DNA from: Escherichia coli
GTDB taxonomy: Bacteria; Pseudomonadota; Gammaproteobacteria; Enterobacterales; Enterobacteriaceae
Strand: one strand, 5' to 3'
Assembly: GCF_016903815.1 (NCBI RefSeq)
Contig: NZ_CP069973.1
DNA length: 64,000 nt
Shown: positions 1 through 8,448 of the stretch, in pieces
How the letters are laid out: every line of letters starts with the position of its first letter
How positions within the stretch are numbered: position 1 is the stretch's first letter
Notes under the pieces: generated by a model
Databases searched by the model: none
Told to the model about the DNA's origin: nothing
What the model saw: only the letters and a program-made list of their open reading frames with translations
Made by a program: the position numbers and the translations under genes

Positions 1-541
1 GTCAAACATGACTATTTGCATAACTGAATCTCCACCTGAATACGTTAAAAAGACTTAAGTAGTGGAAGGGTATTACCCGCGAGAAAAAATAAGAATTCGC
101 CATTTGGCGGTGGCCATTCTACAGAGATGACGCGTAGAAAATAGTTGCCGATATAAATCGTTACAGCTAAACGCCTGAAATTACATGTCGAGGGCACTAT
201 TTAAAACAATTTTGAGGATTTCCTTATATTGATGGTTAGTACGCATGCAATTAAAAATGAAACTCCGCGACCACAAGCAAAAATAACAAATGGCAATGAG
301 ACAAAAATAAGCACAAATAGCCAACACGTCCTCTGTTCACTTTAAAGGGAATCGCTGAAAAAAAACGCTCTGTTTAGGGAAATTCACCTTTCTCATAAAG
401 CTATTCCGCCCTTTTCCTGCTGAGAAATCGCCACATTCGTCATGACAACATTGTGAAACCCGGCATTAGATGTTAGAAAAAACAATAAACAATGCGATAT
501 GCGCGTTACTGTTTCGCTGTGAACAACAATCGGTCAAAGAA

Positions 542-1441
542 ATGGATAAAATTCACGCAATGCAGTTGTTCATCAAAGTCGCGGAGCTGGAAAGTTTTTC
601 CCGCGCGGCGGATTTCTTTGCTTTGCCAAAGGGAAGTGTTTCGCGCCAGATACAGGCACTGGAACATCAACTTGGCACCCAGCTTCTCCAGCGCACTACG
701 CGACGGGTCAAACTCACGCCAGAAGGCATGACCTATTATCAACGGGCAAAAGATGTGTTGAGTAATCTCAGCGAACTGGACGGTCTGTTTCAACAGGATG
801 CCACCAGTATCAGCGGTAAATTACGCATCGACATCCCGCCAGGAATCGCGAAAAGCCTGTTACTGCCGCGCCTGTCGGAATTTATCTATCTGCATCCGGG
901 AATTGAGCTGGAGCTGAGTAGCCATGACCGTCCGGTAGATATTCTTCACGATGGTTTTGATTGCGTGATACGCACTGGCGCGTTACCGGAAAATGGCGTT
1001 ATCGCCCGTCCCCTCGGCAAACTGACCATGGTCAACTGTGCCAGTCCGCACTATCTGACGCGCTTTGGTTATCCTCAAAGCCCCGACGATCTGACTTCGC
1101 ACGCAATAGTGCGCTACACACCGCACCTGGGTGTACATCCGTTAGGTTTTGAGGTTGCCAGCGTTAATGGCGTCCAGTGGTTTAAGTCTGGCGGCATGTT
1201 GACGGTAAACAGTCGCGAAAACTATCTCGCCGCCGGTCTTGCCGGTCTGGGGATTATTCAGATCCCGCGCATTGCCGTGCGCGAAGCCCTGCGTGCCGGG
1301 AGGCTTATTGAAGTATTACCTGGCTACCGTGCCGAGCCGCTCTCCCTTTCGCTGGTTTATCCGCAGCGTCGGGAGCTTTCCCGGCGTGTAAACCTGTTTA
1401 TGCAGTGGCTGGCTGGCGTAATGAAAGAGCACCTGGACTGA
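542..1441 (+). CDS. yhjC: LysR-family transcriptional regulator
   Basis: ORF 470..1441; N-terminal LysR-type helix-turn-helix region (QLFIKVAELESFSRAA...); ATG at 542 gives 299 aa; followed by yhjD and yhjE. Confidence 0.8.
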   Translation: MDKIHAMQLFIKVAELESFSRAADFFALPKGSVSRQIQALEHQLGTQLLQRTTRRVKLTPEGMTYYQRAKDVLSNLSELDGLFQQDATSISGKLRIDIPPGIAKSLLLPRLSEFIYLHPGIELELSSHDRPVDILHDGFDCVIRTGALPENGVIARPLGKLTMVNCASPHYLTRFGYPQSPDDLTSHAIVRYTPHLGVHPLGFEVASVNGVQWFKSGGMLTVNSRENYLAAGLAGLGIIQIPRIAVREALRAGRLIEVLPGYRAEPLSLSLVYPQRRELSRRVNLFMQWLAGVMKEHLD

Positions 1442-1489
1442 CCGACTATACTTTTTAAGAATGACCACGACAGAAGGACAAAAGAGCGG

Positions 1490-2503
1490 ATGACGCAGGA
1501 AAACGAGATCAAACGTCCCACCCAGGATCTGGAGCACGAGCCGATTAAGCAGTTGGATAATAGCGAGAAAGGCGGCAAAGTTAGCCAGGCGCTGGAAACC
1601 GTCACCACCACTGCCGAAAAAGTCCAACGCCAACCGGTTATTGCGCACCTGATTCGCGCAACAGAGCGCTTTAACGATCGGCTGGGTAACCAGTTTGGTG
1701 CGGCTATCACCTATTTCTCATTTTTGTCGATGATCCCGATTTTGATGGTGTCGTTTGCCGCAGGGGGCTTTGTGCTGGCCTCCCATCCGATGTTGCTACA
1801 GGATATCTTCGACAAAATTCTGCAAAACATCAGCGATCCGACGCTAGCCGCCACGTTGAAAAACACCATCAACACCGCCGTTCAGCAGCGTACTACCGTA
1901 GGGCTTGTCGGCCTGGCGGTGGCGCTTTATTCCGGCATCAACTGGATGGGTAACCTGCGTGAAGCGATTCGCGCCCAGTCACGCGATGTCTGGGAACGCT
2001 CGCCGCAAGATCAGGAGAAGTTCTGGGTAAAATATCTGCGTGATTTTATTTCACTGATTGGTTTGTTGATTGCACTGATTGTGACGCTTTCGATCACCTC
2101 GGTTGCCGGTTCGGCGCAGCAAATGATTATTAGCGCCCTGCACCTGAACAGCATTGAGTGGCTGAAACCGACGTGGCGGTTGATTGGCCTGGCGATTTCC
2201 ATCTTCGCCAACTATCTGCTTTTCTTCTGGATCTTCTGGCGCTTGCCGCGCCACCGTCCGCGCAAAAAAGCCCTGATTCGCGGAACATTTCTGGCTGCGA
2301 TTGGTTTTGAAGTGATTAAAATCGTGATGACCTACACCCTGCCATCGCTGATGAAATCCCCCTCTGGCGCAGCATTTGGTTCCGTGCTGGGACTGATGGC
2401 ATTTTTCTACTTCTTCGCCCGTTTGACGCTGTTTTGCGCGGCGTGGATTGCCACCGCCGAATATAAAGACGACCCGCGAATGCCGGGGAAAACGCAGCGG
2501 TAA
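1490..2503 (+). CDS. yhjD: inner membrane protein, YihY/RNase BN-like family
   Basis: 337-aa ORF with multiple hydrophobic segments; expected position between yhjC and yhjE. Confidence 0.8.
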   Translation: MTQENEIKRPTQDLEHEPIKQLDNSEKGGKVSQALETVTTTAEKVQRQPVIAHLIRATERFNDRLGNQFGAAITYFSFLSMIPILMVSFAAGGFVLASHPMLLQDIFDKILQNISDPTLAATLKNTINTAVQQRTTVGLVGLAVALYSGINWMGNLREAIRAQSRDVWERSPQDQEKFWVKYLRDFISLIGLLIALIVTLSITSVAGSAQQMIISALHLNSIEWLKPTWRLIGLAISIFANYLLFFWIFWRLPRHRPRKKALIRGTFLAAIGFEVIKIVMTYTLPSLMKSPSGAAFGSVLGLMAFFYFFARLTLFCAAWIATAEYKDDPRMPGKTQR

Positions 2504-2541
2504 TTCATTGGTTTATAATGCCTGATAAACGCACGGTCGAT

Positions 2542-2579
2542 CCCCTCGCCCCTTCGGGGAGAGGGTTAGGGTGAGGGGG
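2542..2579. repeat. GC-rich imperfect palindromic intergenic repeat, possibly BoxC-like; copy 1
   Basis: cccctcgccccttcggggagagggttagggtgaggggg; near-identical copy at 4308..4345 in the same orientation. Confidence 0.6.
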
Positions 2580-2894
2580 TACAAGCCAGCCAGAGACCAG
2601 GCAATGACATGCACATAACCACCTGAAACTACATCTCTTCAGGAGCAAACAATTTCATTCCAACTCACAACCCCAGCATATAAATCCAGTTGGTAACTTT
2701 TATTTAACCTGAAACCAGTTTTATCCACTATTTATAAAATTATGTGAAGCATTTCATAGAAGAAAAATCACTGGCTTAAACATTATCCCCTTTTTGCCTG
2801 GCTTTTGACCATTTCCGCGATTTGTTACACATTGAAATATCACTTTTGCTGTGCGTAATATGGCTATTCGTTAGCCAAAAAATAAGAAAAGATT

Positions 2895-4217
2895 ATGCAA
2901 GCAACAGCCACAACACTCGACCACGAGCAAGAATACACGCCGATCAACTCGCGTAATAAAGTCCTTGTCGCCTCTCTCATTGGCACGGCCATTGAGTTTT
3001 TCGACTTTTACATTTACGCCACTGCGGCCGTTATTGTGTTTCCGCATATCTTCTTCCCGCAGGGCGATCCTACGGCAGCAACGCTCCAGTCGCTCGCCAC
3101 CTTCGCCATCGCCTTCGTCGCGCGCCCTATTGGCTCTGCCGTCTTTGGTCATTTTGGCGATCGCGTTGGGCGTAAAGCGACGCTGGTCGCCTCGTTGCTA
3201 ACGATGGGGATTTCGACCGTGGTGATTGGTCTGCTGCCGGGCTATGCCACGATTGGTATTTTCGCCCCGCTGCTGCTGGCGCTGGCTCGATTTGGTCAGG
3301 GTCTGGGCTTAGGCGGTGAATGGGGCGGCGCGGCGCTGCTGGCGACTGAAAACGCCCCACCGCGCAAACGTGCACTGTATGGCTCCTTCCCACAGCTGGG
3401 CGCACCGATTGGCTTCTTCTTTGCCAACGGCACTTTCTTGCTGCTTTCCTGGCTACTGACCGACGAGCAGTTTATGAGCTGGGGCTGGCGGGTGCCATTT
3501 ATCTTCTCGGCGGTACTGGTCATTATCGGCCTGTATGTTCGCGTGTCGCTGCATGAGTCGCCGGTGTTTGAGAAAGTCGCTAAAGCGAAAAAACAGGTGA
3601 AGATCCCGCTGGGTACGCTGCTGACCAAACATGTTCGCGTAACCGTACTGGGTACGTTCATTATGCTGGCAACCTATACGCTGTTTTACATCATGACGGT
3701 CTACTCTATGACCTTCAGTACCGCCGCCGCGCCAGTTGGGCTTGGCCTGCCGCGTAACGAAGTGTTGTGGATGCTGATGATGGCAGTTATTGGTTTTGGC
3801 GTGATGGTACCTGTCGCCGGATTACTGGCTGATGCCTTTGGTCGCCGTAAAAGCATGGTAATCATCACCACGCTGATCATCCTGTTCGCGCTGTTCGCCT
3901 TTAACCCGCTACTCGGTTCTGGCAACCCGATTCTGGTTTTTGCCTTCCTGCTGCTGGGGTTAAGTCTGATGGGACTGACCTTCGGGCCGATGGGCGCGCT
4001 GTTACCAGAGCTGTTCCCGACAGAAGTGCGTTACACCGGAGCATCGTTCTCTTACAACGTAGCGTCGATTCTCGGGGCTTCCGTTGCGCCGTATATCGCA
4101 GCCTGGTTGCAGACTAACTACGGGTTAGGTGCGGTGGGGTTATATCTGGCGGCGATGGCTGGCTTGACGTTAATCGCCCTGCTGCTGACCCATGAGACAC
4201 GACATCAGTCGTTGTAA
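2895..4217 (+). CDS. yhjE: MFS-family metabolite transporter
   Basis: 440-aa ORF with about 12 predicted transmembrane segments and sugar/metabolite MFS-like motifs. Confidence 0.8.
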   Translation: MQATATTLDHEQEYTPINSRNKVLVASLIGTAIEFFDFYIYATAAVIVFPHIFFPQGDPTAATLQSLATFAIAFVARPIGSAVFGHFGDRVGRKATLVASLLTMGISTVVIGLLPGYATIGIFAPLLLALARFGQGLGLGGEWGGAALLATENAPPRKRALYGSFPQLGAPIGFFFANGTFLLLSWLLTDEQFMSWGWRVPFIFSAVLVIIGLYVRVSLHESPVFEKVAKAKKQVKIPLGTLLTKHVRVTVLGTFIMLATYTLFYIMTVYSMTFSTAAAPVGLGLPRNEVLWMLMMAVIGFGVMVPVAGLLADAFGRRKSMVIITTLIILFALFAFNPLLGSGNPILVFAFLLLGLSLMGLTFGPMGALLPELFPTEVRYTGASFSYNVASILGASVAPYIAAWLQTNYGLGAVGLYLAAMAGLTLIALLLTHETRHQSL

Positions 4218-4307
4218 GTATCGTGCGGGCTGCCACCCTCACCCCGGCCCTCCCCCCAGAAAGTGAACGGAAAAGCGGTACTCGTTGTTTCAACACGCAC
4301 AAAACAG

Positions 4308-4345
4308 TCCCCTCGCCCCTTTGGGGAGAGGGTTAGGGTGAGGGG
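4308..4345. repeat. GC-rich imperfect palindromic intergenic repeat, possibly BoxC-like; copy 2
   Basis: tcccctcgcccctttggggagagggttagggtgagggg; matches copy at 2542..2579. Confidence 0.6.
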
Positions 4346-4389
4346 AACACGCTGCTCCCGAACTCACCAGCAAACACAATCCAACCTCA

Positions 4390-6450
4390 TCACTTCTTCA
4401 TCTGCGACAAAATCGTCCGGCACTGATTAGCCTCCCCTTCGGAAGGTGAGATCAGCGCCAGTAACGCCGCCGCTGGCGTAACCAGCGTTGCCAGTGCCGC
4501 CGCAACGGCTCCTCGGGCAATCAACGGCCCGGCTTTCACCCCAGCCTGCGGATTTTTAAATGTCCCACGCACATACAGCGGCGAACGCAGCGTGATAATC
4601 CGAATTCCTTTACTCTCCGGATCAATAGTCAAATCCAGCTGTTCCGAAGCAAAACTTGCCGTGCCGGTAACGTTAATCAACGCGTTCTCAGTATCGAAAG
4701 CAAAAATCTGCGGGCGCGCCACGCCGTTGGCAATATCCAGATTCGCCGCCGCACAGTTCACCCGCACCTCATCGTCACCAAATATCGCACCGACAATGTA
4801 GTTACCGACATTCAGCCCGACAATCTCCATCAGGTTGCGGCTCACCAGCCCGTCATTCATCAACAGTTTCAGGTTGCCGTTACTGTTGCCTAAAAGCGCC
4901 GCCACCGAGTTACCGCTACCGCGTAGTTCCGCGTCACCGTTCATTTCCCCCAGCGTCTTCTGCATCAGTTCCACATCGGGCATCAGTTCTTTCAGTTTCA
5001 GCCGACGAGCCTGAATATCTGCCCGCCCTTGCATCGGTTTTTTATCACCTTCCAGATGAATATTCGCCGCAATGCTGCCGCCTGCCATGCCAAATTTCAG
5101 CGGTTGCAGGCGCAGGTCAGCATTTTTGAGGATGATATGAGTAGAAAGATCGCTAATCGGCAGGCTACTGCCATGCTCAATGCGCCGCCCTTTGAAGCGA
5201 ACATCGGCATCCATGACGTCCCATTTATCGGTTTCGAAGCGGTCATAAGGCAGCACTTTACCCGCAGGCTGAACGCTTTTTTCGCCCTTCTTCTGTTCAG
5301 ACCGTTTCGACTTTTCAGCTCCTTTCCCGGAATCAACGCCAATCAACGGTCCCAAGTCCGCCAGCCGCAATTGCCGCGACTCGACATCACCTTCCAGTTT
5401 TGGCCGTGGCTTGCCGGTGGTATAGACCAGAGAACCGTGGATATCGCTATCGCCAATGCGCCCATTAAAGCCGCGATAATCAAAGACCGACGATTTTTCA
5501 GTGTCGATTTTCGCTACCAGCCGACCATCCGTTTCAAACGGCGGGGTATCGGGCAGCAGAACGCCCGTCAGTTCATAGAGATCACCCAGCGAATCGCCAG
5601 AAAATTTAAGCCGTAAATCGACACCACCCATCTTCATTGGGTCATTCACAACGCCATCAAAAGCAACACGGGTGTTACCAGAGCGGAAATCAGCCTGTAC
5701 CGGAAACGGCGTCCCTTCGCCACGCAGCGCCAGCATACCGCCTATTTTTCCCGTACCAGTGAGCGGTTCACCGTTATAACGTCCCTGCGCCTTCAGGCCA
5801 AAAACGTAATCGCCCACCTTTTCTTTATCCGCTTTACCTTTCGATCCAGTAACTTCGCTGAACGGCAGCGGCTTGCCTAACGGATCGACAAAAATTTCCA
5901 GATCCGCTTTGCTTACTTTGTCATCAATGGCGATCCGCCCTTGATCGAAAAGAATATTATCCAGCCGAAACGACCATGCCGACGGCTTTGCATTCGCGTC
6001 TTTGTTGTCATCGCTGGCGAGATTAAATGTCCAGTTGTTGTTCTTTTCTGAGAGGCGAATCAGGCGTGCGTCGGGCTTTTCCAGTTTGATCCACGGTAGC
6101 CAGACCGTTTTGGTCAGCAGCGCCAACGGTGCCAGCGTTGCCTCTACGCGTGGCAAATGCACCATTGTGACTTCGGGAATATCCGGTGGATTGCCGAGAA
6201 TGATGTCTTCTGCATGCACATGAGGCCACGGCACCCAGCTGCGCCAGCCAGTTTCTTGCTTTTGCCGCTCCCACACCACGCCCAGATCGCCACGGATAGC
6301 GAACGGACGATTCAACTCCGCAGAGACTTTCTGGTTGATGGTCGGTTTGAGTCGATTCCAGTCAAAAGTTGCAATCAAAATGATCGCCACGACAATCAAC
6401 AACAAGAAAGCCCCTGAAATCGCAGCGGTTATTTTGCCTGCCTTGCTCAT
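4390..6450 (-). CDS. yhjG: AsmA-family protein
   Basis: ORF 4390..6465; ATG at 6450 (MSKAGK...) has a GAGGAAG Shine-Dalgarno 6 nt upstream and gives 686 aa; N-terminal membrane anchor then large periplasmic domain. Confidence 0.8.
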   Translation of the reverse strand: MSKAGKITAAISGAFLLLIVVAIILIATFDWNRLKPTINQKVSAELNRPFAIRGDLGVVWERQKQETGWRSWVPWPHVHAEDIILGNPPDIPEVTMVHLPRVEATLAPLALLTKTVWLPWIKLEKPDARLIRLSEKNNNWTFNLASDDNKDANAKPSAWSFRLDNILFDQGRIAIDDKVSKADLEIFVDPLGKPLPFSEVTGSKGKADKEKVGDYVFGLKAQGRYNGEPLTGTGKIGGMLALRGEGTPFPVQADFRSGNTRVAFDGVVNDPMKMGGVDLRLKFSGDSLGDLYELTGVLLPDTPPFETDGRLVAKIDTEKSSVFDYRGFNGRIGDSDIHGSLVYTTGKPRPKLEGDVESRQLRLADLGPLIGVDSGKGAEKSKRSEQKKGEKSVQPAGKVLPYDRFETDKWDVMDADVRFKGRRIEHGSSLPISDLSTHIILKNADLRLQPLKFGMAGGSIAANIHLEGDKKPMQGRADIQARRLKLKELMPDVELMQKTLGEMNGDAELRGSGNSVAALLGNSNGNLKLLMNDGLVSRNLMEIVGLNVGNYIVGAIFGDDEVRVNCAAANLDIANGVARPQIFAFDTENALINVTGTASFASEQLDLTIDPESKGIRIITLRSPLYVRGTFKNPQAGVKAGPLIARGAVAAALATLVTPAAALLALISPSEGEANQCRTILSQMKK

Positions 6451-6519
6451 CGTTCGCTTCCTCATATTCTTCCTGTGCCAGTCCTAAAGATAGTCCAGCC
6501 AGGCGGAAAATGAGGCAGC

Positions 6520-7287
6520 TTATAGCGCCAAAACCGCCGTATTCAGCGTTTCTATCGGTGCCGGGCGTGAAAGAAACCAGCCTTGTGCGGCGAATGCGGG
6601 CGAGCTCTGAACATCACGCCACTCTTCCGGCGTTTCTACGCCCTCGACGATCACCCCGCGACAATAGCGATTCATGAGATGTAAAAGCTGAGAAAAGAGT
6701 GTGCGTCCTTCCGGCGACTGACGCAGCATCACAAACAGCTCTCGCGCGATTTTGATGTAGTCATAACGCACTTCACTTAGCGCAGAGAAATTTGCCATCC
6801 CGGTGCCAAAATCATCCAGCCACAGCGGGCCAAATTCACACATCGAGGCAAAGGTTGAATCTTTCGGCAGACGGATGTGTTCCACCAGTTCGAAACGCAG
6901 CCAGGGAAGACGCTCAATCTGGCGCAGGATTTTTGGTTGCTGACGCAGGGCGATGAGCGTAGGGCCATCAATATTGACCGATGCCAGCAGGTCATGCTCT
7001 ATAAAGAAGTCGGCTTTTTGCGCCAGTAAATCAATCTGCTCTTTCACAACCTCCATCCGATGGCTGACGGTGATTTCAGTAAAATAGCGATCCGGCGGCA
7101 GGCGTTGCGAAGGGTTCAAGGGATGCGTGACCACCGTTAATAGCTCCACGGCCATTAACCGCCCGCATGTTTGATAGATCGGCTGCCAGGTGTAAGCACG
7201 CTCACACTGCAACCAAAAACGCCGTTCCTGCAAGCTCTCGATGCTTGCTTCAGGGTTGCTTATTCGCTGGATAACCTGCCTTATCAT
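6520..7287 (-). CDS. pdeH: EAL-domain c-di-GMP phosphodiesterase
   Basis: 255 aa from internal ATG (MIRQVIQRIS...); EAL-domain residues visible; divergent from kdgK. Confidence 0.85.
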   Translation of the reverse strand: MIRQVIQRISNPEASIESLQERRFWLQCERAYTWQPIYQTCGRLMAVELLTVVTHPLNPSQRLPPDRYFTEITVSHRMEVVKEQIDLLAQKADFFIEHDLLASVNIDGPTLIALRQQPKILRQIERLPWLRFELVEHIRLPKDSTFASMCEFGPLWLDDFGTGMANFSALSEVRYDYIKIARELFVMLRQSPEGRTLFSQLLHLMNRYCRGVIVEGVETPEEWRDVQSSPAFAAQGWFLSRPAPIETLNTAVLAL

Positions 7288-7433
7288 CAAAGATGTCCTG
7301 TGTTTAAAAGTGATGCTGCCCGGACTCGACAAAGATTATCGGCGCGCAAGGGCATAACTTTACCGCCTGGCCGGGTTAAATTTTCCCACTCCACAACGGA
7401 ATCTTTCAGGAATACGTTCTGGCTCAAAAAAAT

Positions 7434-7452
7434 AATGGAACACTGTTTTAAT
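7434..7452 (+). promoter_or_regulatory. putative KdgR operator upstream of kdgK
   Basis: AATGGAACACTGTTTTAAT, an imperfect palindrome resembling the KdgR box (AATGAAACAnTGTTTCATT) as I recall it, about 65 bp upstream of the kdgK ATG. Confidence 0.45.
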
Positions 7453-7518
7453 ATGGTTGACCAGCAAACCACCACAGCGCAAACTAACGCTAATTTTTTA
7501 CAGATCAGGTTCACGACT

Positions 7519-8448
7519 ATGTCCAAAAAGATTGCCGTGATTGGCGAATGCATGATTGAGCTTTCCGAGAAAGGCGCGGACGTTAAGCGCGGTTTCGGCG
7601 GCGATACCCTGAACACTTCCGTCTATATCGCCCGTCAGGTCGATCCTGCGGCATTAACCGTTCATTACGTAACGGCGCTGGGAACGGACAGTTTTAGCCA
7701 GCAAATGCTGGACGCCTGGCACGGCGAGAACGTTGATACTTCCCTGACCCAACGGATGGAAAACCGTCTGCCGGGCCTTTACTACATTGAAACCGACAGC
7801 ACCGGCGAACGTACGTTCTACTACTGGCGTAACGAAGCCGCCGCCAAATTCTGGCTGGAGAGCGAGCAGTCTGCGGCGATTTGCGAAGAGCTGGCGAATT
7901 TCGATTATCTCTACCTGAGCGGGATTAGCCTGGCGATCTTAAGCCCGACCAGCCGCGAGAAACTGCTTTCTTTGTTGCGCGAATGCCGCGCCAACGGCGG
8001 AAAAGTAATTTTCGACAATAACTATCGTCCGCGCCTGTGGGCCAGCAAAGAAGAGACACAGCAGGTGTACCAGCAAATGCTGGAATGCACGGATATCGCC
8101 TTCCTGACGCTGGACGACGAAGACGCGCTGTGGGGTCAACAGCCGGTGGAAGACGTCATTGCGCGCACCCATAACGCGGGCGTGAAAGAAGTGGTGGTGA
8201 AACGCGGGGCGGATTCTTGCCTGGTGTCCATTGCTGGCGAAGGGTTAGTGGATGTTCCGGCGGTGAAACTGCCGAAAGAAAAAGTGATCGATACCACCGC
8301 AGCTGGCGACTCTTTCAGTGCCGGTTATCTGGCGGTACGTTTGACGGGCGGCAGTGCGGAAAACGCGGCGAAACGCGGGCACCTGACCGCAAGTACCGTT
8401 ATTCAGTATCGCGGCGCGATTATCCCGCGTGAGGCGATGCCGGCGTAA
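7519..8448 (+). CDS. kdgK: 2-dehydro-3-deoxygluconokinase
   Basis: 309 aa from ATG at 7519 (MSKKIAVIGECMIEL...); PfkB-family sugar kinase motifs including the C-terminal DTTAAGD; ORF-track entry has a spurious upstream extension. Confidence 0.85.
   Translation: MSKKIAVIGECMIELSEKGADVKRGFGGDTLNTSVYIARQVDPAALTVHYVTALGTDSFSQQMLDAWHGENVDTSLTQRMENRLPGLYYIETDSTGERTFYYWRNEAAAKFWLESEQSAAICEELANFDYLYLSGISLAILSPTSREKLLSLLRECRANGGKVIFDNNYRPRLWASKEETQQVYQQMLECTDIAFLTLDDEDALWGQQPVEDVIARTHNAGVKEVVVKRGADSCLVSIAGEGLVDVPAVKLPKEKVIDTTAAGDSFSAGYLAVRLTGGSAENAAKRGHLTASTVIQYRGAIIPREAMPA

Follow-up and report, generated by a model that had tools for sequence, protein, structure and literature searches.

REP elements (BIMEs), which are short, GC-rich, imperfect palindromes of intergenic DNA, protect RNA 3' ends from exonucleases by forming hairpins there. 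To our knowledge REPs have a cognate transposase, RayT, and none is known for BoxC, an intergenic family also named PIT or TMECO and reportedly described by Bergler in 1992, by Bachellier in the 1990s and by Hoyne in 2000. The published BoxC consensus is CCCTCNCCCN3-6GGGNGAGGGN3GGGNGAGGG; its second loop is TTA in type A and CCG in type B, close inverted pairs are made up of one A and one B, and copies with one G.A mismatch form the 'A mm' class of Table 1 (Holder 2015). The same study listed 23 copies in K-12, surveyed 62 loci over 56 strains, found that BoxC loci vary more than control intergenic regions, and saw no bias in the class, distance or orientation of the neighbouring genes (Holder 2015).

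The window analysed here (the whole 64-kb stretch of Escherichia coli DNA) carries yhjE between two near-identical GC-rich repeats in the same orientation, as the preliminary description had reported, and the gaps that it gave were exact: copy 1 begins 37 nt after the yhjD stop codon and copy 2 begins 90 nt after that of yhjE. A repeat search of the window showed that each copy is 38 nt long and that they are identical at 37/38 positions (97%), the sole difference being C/T in the first loop; they are direct repeats spaced 1767 nt from start to start. When the originally proposed pattern was searched against the 64-kb window with up to three mismatches tolerated, exactly two matches were obtained, at 2542-2578 and 4309-4345, both on the plus strand and with 0 mismatches, and 100 dinucleotide-preserving shuffles used as the control gave none. 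The names yhjD, yhjE and yhjG come from the annotation of E. coli strain 7/2, a RefSeq genome that matches with 100% identity. The features of the region are as follows.

1490..2503, plus strand: yhjD coding sequence (ORF list; annotation of the identical genome).
2516..2591, plus strand: extended family unit of copy 1 (flanks common to other BoxC loci).
2541..2578, plus strand: BoxC/PIT/TMECO copy 1, type A mm (pattern, repeat and consensus searches).
2656..2716, plus strand: conserved stretch within the yhjD-yhjE spacer, whose K-12 homologue is the Rho termination region (Adams 2021; coordinate mapping).
2895..4217, plus strand: yhjE coding sequence, MFS transporter (ORF list; annotation of the identical genome).
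4222..4360, no strand assigned: composite inverted pair of partial type B copy, spacer and type A copy (RNA fold).
4236..4256, minus strand: partial BoxC copy, type B with CCG loop (GGGGGAGGGCCGGGGTGAGGG; repeat search; comparison with the full allele).
4245..4252, no strand assigned: junction of a 61-bp deletion (surviving copy of an 8-bp direct repeat).
4296..4358, plus strand: extended family unit of copy 2 (alignment with other BoxC loci).
4308..4345, plus strand: BoxC/PIT/TMECO copy 2, type A mm (same searches as copy 1; Holder 2015 Table 1).
4390..6465, minus strand: yhjG coding sequence, convergent with yhjE (ORF list; annotation of the identical genome).

In copy 1 a C block at 2543-2551 (CCCTCGCCC) is followed by G blocks at 2557-2565 (GGGAGAGGG) and 2569-2577 (GGGTGAGGG), with the loop CTTCG between the C block and the first G block and TTA between the two G blocks; the corresponding blocks of copy 2 lie at 4310-4318, 4324-4332 and 4336-4344. 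Each copy has on either side about 12 nt of weaker, family-typical flank, which makes the family unit about 60 nt rather than 38; the flanks of the copy 1 unit (GCCTGATAAACGCACGGTCGAT on the left, GTACAAGCCAGCC on the right) both recur at other BoxC loci. These extended flanks, and the partial minus-strand copy, had been overlooked in the preliminary description. A covariance-model scan of positions 1-8000 of the window against Rfam at E <= 10 returned matches at chance level only (E >= 1, far below gathering), among them the candidates mir-3099 and Antizyme_FSE.

The guess that the repeats belong to BoxC was borne out. The consensus, 5'-CCCTCNCCC N3-6 GGGNGAGGG N3 GGGNGAGGG-3', is matched exactly at 2543-2577 and 4310-4344 and gave 0 matches in 100 shuffles; both full copies have the type A loop TTA, the partial inverted copy has the type B loop CCG, and K-12 TMECO nos. 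7, 11 and 15 of Holder (2015, Table 1) have exactly the core of copy 2. Judged by their sequence, both repeats are canonical BoxC of type A with one mismatch (type A mm). They share with that family the exact consensus, the TTA loop, the common G.A mismatch, an intergenic site and a frequency of about 20 copies per genome, as well as inverted A+B pairs, some of them partly deleted, and a hypervariable neighbourhood, and nothing essential distinguishes the two copies flanking yhjE from it. Neither locus carries BoxC in K-12, and they are therefore not among its 23 listed copies. The element found at yhjE is already known: descriptions go back to the 1990s, and detailed characterisations date from 2000-2002 and from 2015. 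As a long-known element present at about 20 places per E. coli genome, it carries little weight as a discovery; BoxC copies do deserve labels in annotation, to avoid their being flagged again as novel.

The yhjE-yhjG spacer holds an inverted pair, made up of the partial copy and copy 2, and not a single copy. In the partial copy (4236-4256, minus strand) two G blocks remain and the C block has been lost to the 61-bp deletion, which was defined by aligning the 172-nt spacer of the window pairwise with the undeleted spacer (233 nt, locus L002). The undeleted allele, from strain CUVET18-789, has a complete copy on the minus strand, and the loop of that copy is CTG. An 8-bp direct repeat flanks the deletion (CAGCCCTC in the undeleted allele, CGGCCCTC in the window), and the pair appears from these alleles to have been shortened through slippage between the two repeats. 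Such loss has been termed the 'palindrome effect' (Holder 2015), and the yhjE locus illustrates how slippage erodes inverted BoxC pairs through short deletions.

Both intergenic slots proved to be polymorphic. BoxC lies after yhjD in 600 (11%) of 5426 complete E. coli genomes and after yhjE in about 29% of them, 1468 having the full pair and 132 the truncated pair seen in the window. Two allele classes were distinguished after yhjD and four after yhjE, in addition to the 61-bp deletion; other strains fill the slots with REP elements or, after yhjE, with a terminator hairpin alone, and in strain SF-173 the yhjE-yhjG spacer is only 40 nt. None of the spacer alleles compared is a clean empty site, the spacers differing as far as the stop codons. 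K-12 has REP sequences in both slots and no BoxC; we take these alleles to be REPs from the known REP consensus, GCC(G/T)GATG...(C/T)TTATC(C/A)GGC(CTAC), which is present in the K-12 alleles of both spacers and absent from the window copies, and the MG1655 RefSeq annotation carries no REP features at the yhjD-yhjG locus. REP/BIME elements are likewise short, GC-rich, imperfect palindromes of intergenic DNA and occupy the same two slots in K-12 and most strains, but they are unrelated in sequence and consist of two arms, whereas BoxC has three blocks. The locus is a tidy example of one intergenic slot holding different repeat families, REP or BoxC, according to strain.

A genome-wide count of the motif, which the preliminary description had proposed as a check, detected BoxC in 5425/5426 complete E. 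coli genomes, with a median of 19 places (range 1-33) and a total of 92,990 places; absence elsewhere in the genome, the outcome that would have spoken against the family, was not what we found. Both window copies lie between annotated genes, and genome-wide none overlaps an annotated feature among the matches listed. The contexts include a divergent promoter region (fepB-entC), the inside of the flgF-flgG operon and an antisense position after gldA; the occurrence of BoxC in every kind of context makes any single dedicated function less likely. Plasmids carry the motif as well (510 records), and phages essentially lack it. The same tripartite motif is found in high copy in distant bacteria (Mitsuaria, a Methylomirabilota MAG and Contendobacter), again among the matches listed, and of the neighbouring copies listed there, 50/66 are in the '-+' inverted geometry seen at yhjE-yhjG.

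As to the origin of the two copies, their mutual similarity is limited to 38 nt. The closest relative of copy 1 is the trmJ-iscR copy (locus L126), with 92% identity over 63 nt (window 2516-2578), and that of copy 2 is the fepB-entC copy of K-12-like strains, with 94% over 54 nt. Since each shares a longer stretch with another BoxC locus than with its counterpart across yhjE, the two appear to be independent members of the family and not the products of a local duplication.

We therefore regard it as highly probable that the repeats are ordinary, independent BoxC members in hypervariable cassettes, with no dedicated function and with structural side effects on DNA and RNA; the lack of function is proposed because no evidence of one was found. 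BoxC is dispersed through the genome and strictly confined to intergenic DNA; its unit measures about 37 nt without the flanks, and in it one C-rich block precedes two G-rich blocks and can pair with either of them. Each copy sits in a hypervariable cassette that is elsewhere filled with REP or, after yhjE, with a terminator hairpin alone, and copy 2 is one half of a type A + type B pair from which slippage appears to have removed 61 bp. Any consequences for the cell would arise from structure: as DNA, BoxC may be a hot spot for small intergenic rearrangements; as RNA, its strong hairpin may define or protect the 3' end of a transcript that terminates further downstream, probably through Rho, as REP hairpins or the terminator hairpin would do in other strains.

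The RNA side of this account was examined by folding and by comparison with published transcript ends. Single copies are predicted to form hairpins of -24 to -26.5 kcal/mol (copy 1, -26.5 with a z score of -2.3), and the inverted pair at 4222..4360 folds as a single extended hairpin whichever strand is read (-60.6 kcal/mol, z -3.1, for the plus strand; -72.1, z -4.4, for the minus strand). In curated Term-seq data for K-12, RNA 3' ends lie 3-12 nt beyond BoxC hairpins at six loci, mostly where the copy is read antisense: 624567(-), 632098(+), 847200(-), 3781065(+), which is the primary end of lldD, 3959467(-) and 4231270(-). Among the curated K-12 3' ends, none falls at a type A mm copy read in sense (0 windows with CCCTCGCCCC), the orientation in which yhjD and yhjE read their copies, nor does one occur at the zntA-tusA copy, which has the closest context in K-12 (it follows one gene of a convergent pair and is read in sense). 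The suggestion that the repeats stabilise mRNA or mark its 3' end is plausible from the other BoxC loci, which speak for it indirectly. According to reporter assays by Hoyne and Maher (2002), in the form in which Holder (2015) cites them, PIT elements have neither promoter nor terminator activity; that public maps show RNA ends at several BoxC hairpins all the same points to a small gap in the literature.

K-12, the source of the transcript data, has no BoxC at either site, and a role in 3'-end formation can therefore be argued by analogy only. For yhjG such a role seems rather likely, because its transcript would read copy 2 antisense, from 44 nt past the stop codon, as a hairpin followed by the U-rich stretch GACUGUUUUGUG. 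For yhjE it is possible but doubtful, and for yhjD it is unlikely. The yhjE transcript of K-12 ends at 3,676,288, which is 7 nt beyond a hairpin missing from the window allele (Adams 2021), and a Rho termination region centred on 3,674,577 has been mapped between yhjD and yhjE of K-12 (Adams 2021, supplementary file 2). The centre of that region corresponds to about window position 2686, some 108 nt downstream of copy 1.

Of the other readings, the one that survives best is that BoxC, notably the inverted pair, is a non-autonomous mobile element of the REPIN or MITE kind and that the two repeats at yhjE arose by insertion. Between E. coli genomes the number of copies ranges from 1 to 33, both slots show presence/absence polymorphism, and the plasmid records, the high copy number in Mitsuaria, the Methylomirabilota MAG and Contendobacter, and the prevailing '-+' geometry (the last two among the matches listed) would all fit. 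REPINs, moreover, consist of two inverted copies and a short spacer that fold into one long hairpin, as in the yhjE-yhjG spacer, and this doublet geometry dominates in Mitsuaria. At yhjE-yhjG, however, the inverted pair was found without a flanking direct repeat in the manner of a target-site duplication, and a clean empty site was not seen in any allele. Between the inverted copies the sequences are minisatellite-like and unrelated from pair to pair, and BoxC spacers vary in length (44-300 nt) and in sequence. A limited sample of 1.07 Mb of BoxC-flanking loci, searched by tblastn with E. coli RayT, gave nothing better than E = 3, so that no RAYT-like gene was seen beside the copies sampled; phages are essentially free of BoxC, and Holder (2015) found no link to mobile elements. 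We consider mobility of this kind unlikely. The narrower proposal that BoxC inverted pairs are REPIN-like units recognised by a widely distributed putative enzyme is improbable as well; it is raised because the identical three-block motif recurs, among the matches listed, in Enterobacteriaceae, Burkholderiales (Mitsuaria), Methylomirabilota and Competibacteraceae, and because one inverted geometry prevails around hypervariable interiors while loops and flanks are lineage-specific. A milder form of this proposal would make BoxC and REP interchangeable 3'-end modules that replace one another in the same slots.

It is very unlikely that BoxC regulates replication or the genes beside it as non-B DNA, whether folded into an intrastrand purine-motif triplex or into a G-quadruplex. 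The blocks do obey the purine-motif triplet rules with one mismatch: GGGTGAGGG placed antiparallel to GGGAGAGGG gives allowed triplets only (G*G:C, A*A:T and T*A:T), and pairing with the C block leaves a single G.A mismatch. A quadruplex motif, G3N3G3N3G3N3G3, can likewise be read in the G-rich half, and oligonucleotides of exactly this sequence type form stable triplexes in vitro, with a Tm of 70-82 C (Holder 2015). Double-stranded TMECO, however, was an ordinary duplex by CD and NMR, quadruplex formation was excluded by NMR, DMS footprinting in vivo revealed no protection, and the unbiased class, distance and orientation of the neighbouring genes do not suggest regulation (Holder 2015).

Taken strictly, the words 'terminator-like' in the preliminary description would mean that each copy forms an intrinsic, factor-independent terminator, one for yhjD and one for yhjE, which is a highly improbable reading. 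Like Rho-independent terminators, the copies place a GC-rich hairpin soon after each stop codon, copy 2 is followed by GACUGUUUUGUG when read antisense, and some BoxC copies coincide with the K-12 Term-seq ends. Such a terminator, however, has an uninterrupted stem and a T-rich run within 0-2 nt, and the plus-strand flanks downstream of the copies (GTACAAGCC and AACACGCTG) contain no T-run; on its antisense side copy 2 does have a U-rich flank, but a mismatch interrupts the stem. A scan of 2300-4700 for terminator and promoter consensus flagged neither copy on either strand. The reporter assays on PIT elements, so far as Holder (2015) cites them, also speak against termination, as do the BoxC copy inside the flgF-flgG operon and the zero count of K-12 3' ends at sense-read type A mm copies.

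The suggestion that the same-orientation copies could recombine so as to delete yhjE, or equally to duplicate it, is barely credible, for all that they are direct repeats 1767 nt apart with 37/38 positions identical and that greater variability was found at BoxC loci than in control intergenic regions (Holder 2015). The predicted BoxC x BoxC deletion junction was found in 0/5426 genomes at query coverage of at least 80%, the duplication junction likewise in 0/5426, and yhjE is kept in 5420/5426; recombination between the two copies is absent in sequenced genomes. The longest uninterrupted identity between the copies is only 23 nt, at the lower limit for RecA-dependent exchange, and the population at risk is small, both copies occurring together in only about 100 genomes. 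Finally, that two GC-rich stretches resemble each other by chance can be dismissed, as 0/100 shuffles gave even one match and the family occupies 92,990 places over 5425 genomes.

The variable cassette after yhjD also reaches into the coding sequence: in the alignment the last codon of yhjD, which falls within it, is CGG (Arg) in the window and CCT (Pro) in K-12.

The 37-nt repeat pattern has exactly two matches in the 64-kb window, both on the + strand and without mismatches (2542-2578 and 4309-4345), and was absent from 100 dinucleotide-preserving shuffles. The unit common to both is 38 nt long, with 37/38 positions identical and a sole difference, C or T, in the first loop. As the preliminary description had it, the near-identical copies bracket yhjE in the same orientation, and the gaps (37 nt between yhjD and copy 1, 90 nt between yhjE and copy 2) proved exact. 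Gene names were taken from the annotation of the RefSeq genome of E. coli strain 7/2, which is 100% identical across 3.3 kb.

Features of the yhjD-yhjG region (window positions)
1490-2503, + strand: yhjD open reading frame
2541-2578, + strand: copy 1 of the repeat
2895-4217, + strand: yhjE open reading frame
4236-4256, - strand: partial copy, reading GGGGGAGGG-CCG-GGGTGAGGG, without the C-rich block
4308-4345, + strand: copy 2 of the repeat
4390-6465, - strand: yhjG open reading frame

Both copies are an exact fit to the published consensus 5'-CCCTCNCCC N3-6 GGGNGAGGG N3 GGGNGAGGG-3' of a motif named in succession BoxC, PIT (potential intrastrand triplex) and TMECO (Holder et al., 2015; PMC4666352). 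Against the list in that paper, the core of copy 2 is letter for letter that of K-12 TMECO nos. 7, 11 and 15, which are 'type A mm' (TTA second loop, one G.A mismatch in the hairpin), and copy 1 departs from this core in loop 1 only. The earlier guess of BoxC was thus correct, and the repeats are an already known family, not a new one; no Rfam family covered the copies. A 39-nt query showed the motif to be dispersed, with 92,990 places in 5425 of 5426 complete E. coli genomes (median 19 per genome, range 1-33), all of them, among the matches listed, outside annotated features. Matches at other loci reach beyond the core, so that the family unit exceeds 38 nt: window 2516-2578 is 92% identical over 63 nt to the trmJ-iscR copy of other strains, and window 4296-4349 is 94% identical over 54 nt to the fepB-entC copy. 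Since the mutual similarity of copies 1 and 2 is limited to the 38-nt core, they are, to judge from their sequences, separate family members rather than products of a local duplication.

The partial minus-strand copy, overlooked in the preliminary description together with the longer family unit, has the type B loop CCG and forms with copy 2 an inverted pair in the yhjE-yhjG spacer. Close inverted pairs always comprise one type A and one type B copy (Holder et al., 2015; PMC4666352). The pair folds as a single long hairpin on both strands (+, -60.6 kcal/mol, z -3.1; -, -72.1 kcal/mol, z -4.4).

Both spacers are strain-variable cassettes that reach the stop codons or run into them. The yhjD-yhjE slot holds two REP sequences in K-12 and most strains and BoxC in the window, the BoxC allele being found in 600 of 5426 genomes. 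This cassette (window 2498-2625) begins within the last sense codon of yhjD, which is Arg (CGG) in the window versus Pro (CCT) in K-12; REP alleles also have 20 extra nt inserted between window 2628 and 2629. Four alleles were found in the yhjE-yhjG spacer.

Alleles of the yhjE-yhjG spacer
REP cassette plus a 9-bp-stem hairpin adjoining the yhjG stop; example K-12
9-bp-stem hairpin alone, 40-nt spacer; example SF-173
full BoxC inverted pair; example CUVET18-789; 1468 genomes
BoxC inverted pair minus 61 bp internally; this window; 132 genomes

Compared with the full-pair allele, the 61-bp deletion (junction at window 4245-4252) cost the type B copy its C block. It is flanked by an 8-bp direct repeat, CAGCCCTC, which on sequence grounds is a signature of replication slippage, and it agrees with the 'palindrome effect' of inverted pairs described by Holder et al. 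(2015; PMC4666352).

Same-orientation copies had also been proposed to mediate deletion of yhjE. Two predicted junctions were searched for: yhjD end, BoxC and yhjG end in the case of deletion, and yhjE end, BoxC and yhjE upstream in the case of tandem duplication. At a coverage threshold of 80%, neither had a match in any of the 5426 genomes, and 5420 of them keep yhjE. The two copies share at most 23 nt without a break, which is at the lower limit of what RecA-dependent exchange requires. With an identity of at least 99% over the whole 3.3 kb, about 100 genomes match the window and thus carry both BoxC alleles, and only these are at risk of BoxC x BoxC recombination. With that limit on the sample, the proposed loss of yhjE is not supported.

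The copies had further been described as possible mRNA-stabilising or terminator-like structures. Both lack a downstream T-run on the + strand, neither was flagged by a consensus terminator scan, and in the reporter assays of Hoyne and Maher (2002), as reported through Holder et al. (2015; PMC4666352), PIT elements had no promoter or terminator activity. Moreover, BoxC occurs in varied contexts (the divergent fepB-entC promoter region, antisense after gldA, inside the flgF-flgG operon), which counts against a true terminator. The strict terminator reading is not supported; a role as a 3'-end or stabilising hairpin is plausible. Single-copy RNA hairpins are strong (-23.7 and -26.5 kcal/mol, z about -2.3), and six curated MG1655 3' ends lie 3-12 nt beyond a BoxC hairpin. 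These came from Term-seq (Adams et al., 2021; PMC7815308, supplementary file 1; datasets of 1175, 882 and 1053 ends), whose entries give the sequence from 50 nt before to 10 nt after each 3' end (-50 to +10), a layout verified against Holder's coordinates and NC_000913.3.

Curated MG1655 3' ends beyond BoxC hairpins (sense, as yhjD and yhjE read the copies; antisense, as yhjG reads copy 2)
624567, - strand: BoxC no. 7, core identical to copy 2; antisense
632098, + strand: degenerate BoxC; antisense
847200, - strand: degenerate BoxC; sense
3781065, + strand: BoxC no. 17, primary lldD 3' end; antisense
3959467, - strand: BoxC no. 20, type B; sense
4231270, - strand: degenerate BoxC; antisense

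Three of the six are at Holder's 23 canonical copies, where a rough calculation gives about 0.15 expected by chance in 15-nt zones; comparable enrichment might be seen at stable hairpins of any kind in transcribed spacers. Read in the sense direction, as by yhjD and yhjE in this window, type A mm copies give the string CCCTCGCCCC, which was in none of the curated Term-seq windows; the closest K-12 analogue, the zntA copy (sense, after a gene in a convergent pair), has no Term-seq 3' end. The Term-seq support is thus indirect, comes mainly from the antisense orientation and favours yhjG over yhjD or yhjE. The 624,567 (-) end is a strong 'orphan' in the fepB-entC spacer, 12 nt beyond the antisense-read no. 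7 and upstream of the fepB coding sequence, and may mark a fepB leader RNA that ends prematurely at the BoxC hairpin.

In K-12, the corresponding locus has a + strand 3' end (3,676,288) 7 nt past the hairpin TTGCCGGATGTCAGACATCCGGCAA (Adams et al., 2021; PMC7815308), indicating that this hairpin ends the yhjE transcript there. In both K-12 and SF-173 it adjoins the stop codon of yhjG (compare 3290-3318 of retrieved locus L001), and it is wholly absent from the window allele (4346-4389), so that this strain has no canonical terminator between the convergent yhjE and yhjG; the BoxC pair is the sole strong structure remaining between them. Adams et al. (2021; PMC7815308) place a Rho termination region in the yhjD-yhjE spacer of K-12, with its centre at 3,674,577. 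It maps to window ~2686, in a conserved part of the spacer about 108 nt downstream of copy 1, which suggests that yhjD transcripts are Rho-terminated well downstream of the repeat cassette. In yhjD RNA the BoxC hairpin (the REPs in K-12) would then be the only structure available against 3'-to-5' trimming. Transcription of yhjG runs into copy 2 in the antisense direction 44 nt past the stop, giving a C-rich leader, the hairpin and then GACUGUUUUGUG, a layout very close to the no. 7 arrangement that yields the 624567 end. From this likeness and the other K-12 evidence we rate a BoxC 3'-end role as somewhat more likely than not for yhjG, less likely than not for yhjE and least likely for yhjD.

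G/C-rich triplex motifs have already been reported as widespread (Holder et al., 2015; PMC4666352). A one-genome-per-species scan gave at least 120 stretches in at least three organisms, most of them from Mitsuaria. Among the matches listed were a Methylomirabilota MAG, Mitsuaria chitosanitabida and Candidatus Contendobacter, which share the three-block motif and have lineage-specific loops and flanks; 50 of 66 neighbouring copies in these three were '-+' inverted, as in the yhjE-yhjG pair, with interiors of variable length that are often minisatellite-like. M. chitosanitabida (loci L014-L125) had more than 100 motif copies among the matches listed, mostly in '-+' pairs 44-300 nt apart, with unrelated interiors often made of short tandem repeats (GCTGATA or GAGTTCATC units, for example) and outer flanks CCCGAAGA / TCTTCGGG that lengthen the inverted repeat. 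E. coli-type BoxC was also on 510 of 72,556 plasmid records, including Klebsiella, Rhizobium, Sinorhizobium and Azospirillum. The occurrence in distant lineages and on plasmids, the dominant '-+' geometry and the variable interiors invite a reading of BoxC as a REPIN-like mobile element; however, a tblastn search for E. coli RayT had no hit across 1.07 Mb of DNA around BoxC copies, and neither a target-site duplication nor a clean empty site was seen at the yhjD and yhjE loci.

The plasmid counts are slightly too high because PLSDB record NZ_OL790696.1, a 4.8-Mb E. coli sequence with 26 BoxC places, is evidently a chromosome. Phages are nearly devoid of the motif (5 of 50,697 records). Campylobacter phages A18a and A11a (MG065686.1, MG065691.1) have three places each with a ~95% match to the E. 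coli unit, which is odd in AT-rich records and may reflect contaminating or chimeric sequence. The 155-kb record NZ_CP074792.1 (L129), labelled plasmid p94_0962-1 and carrying the flagellar genes flgE-flgH, may represent either a piece of chromosome carried on a plasmid or an assembly artefact; at 1501-1538 of the retrieved locus flgF and flgG are separated by a perfect BoxC copy, so that BoxC can sit within an operon.
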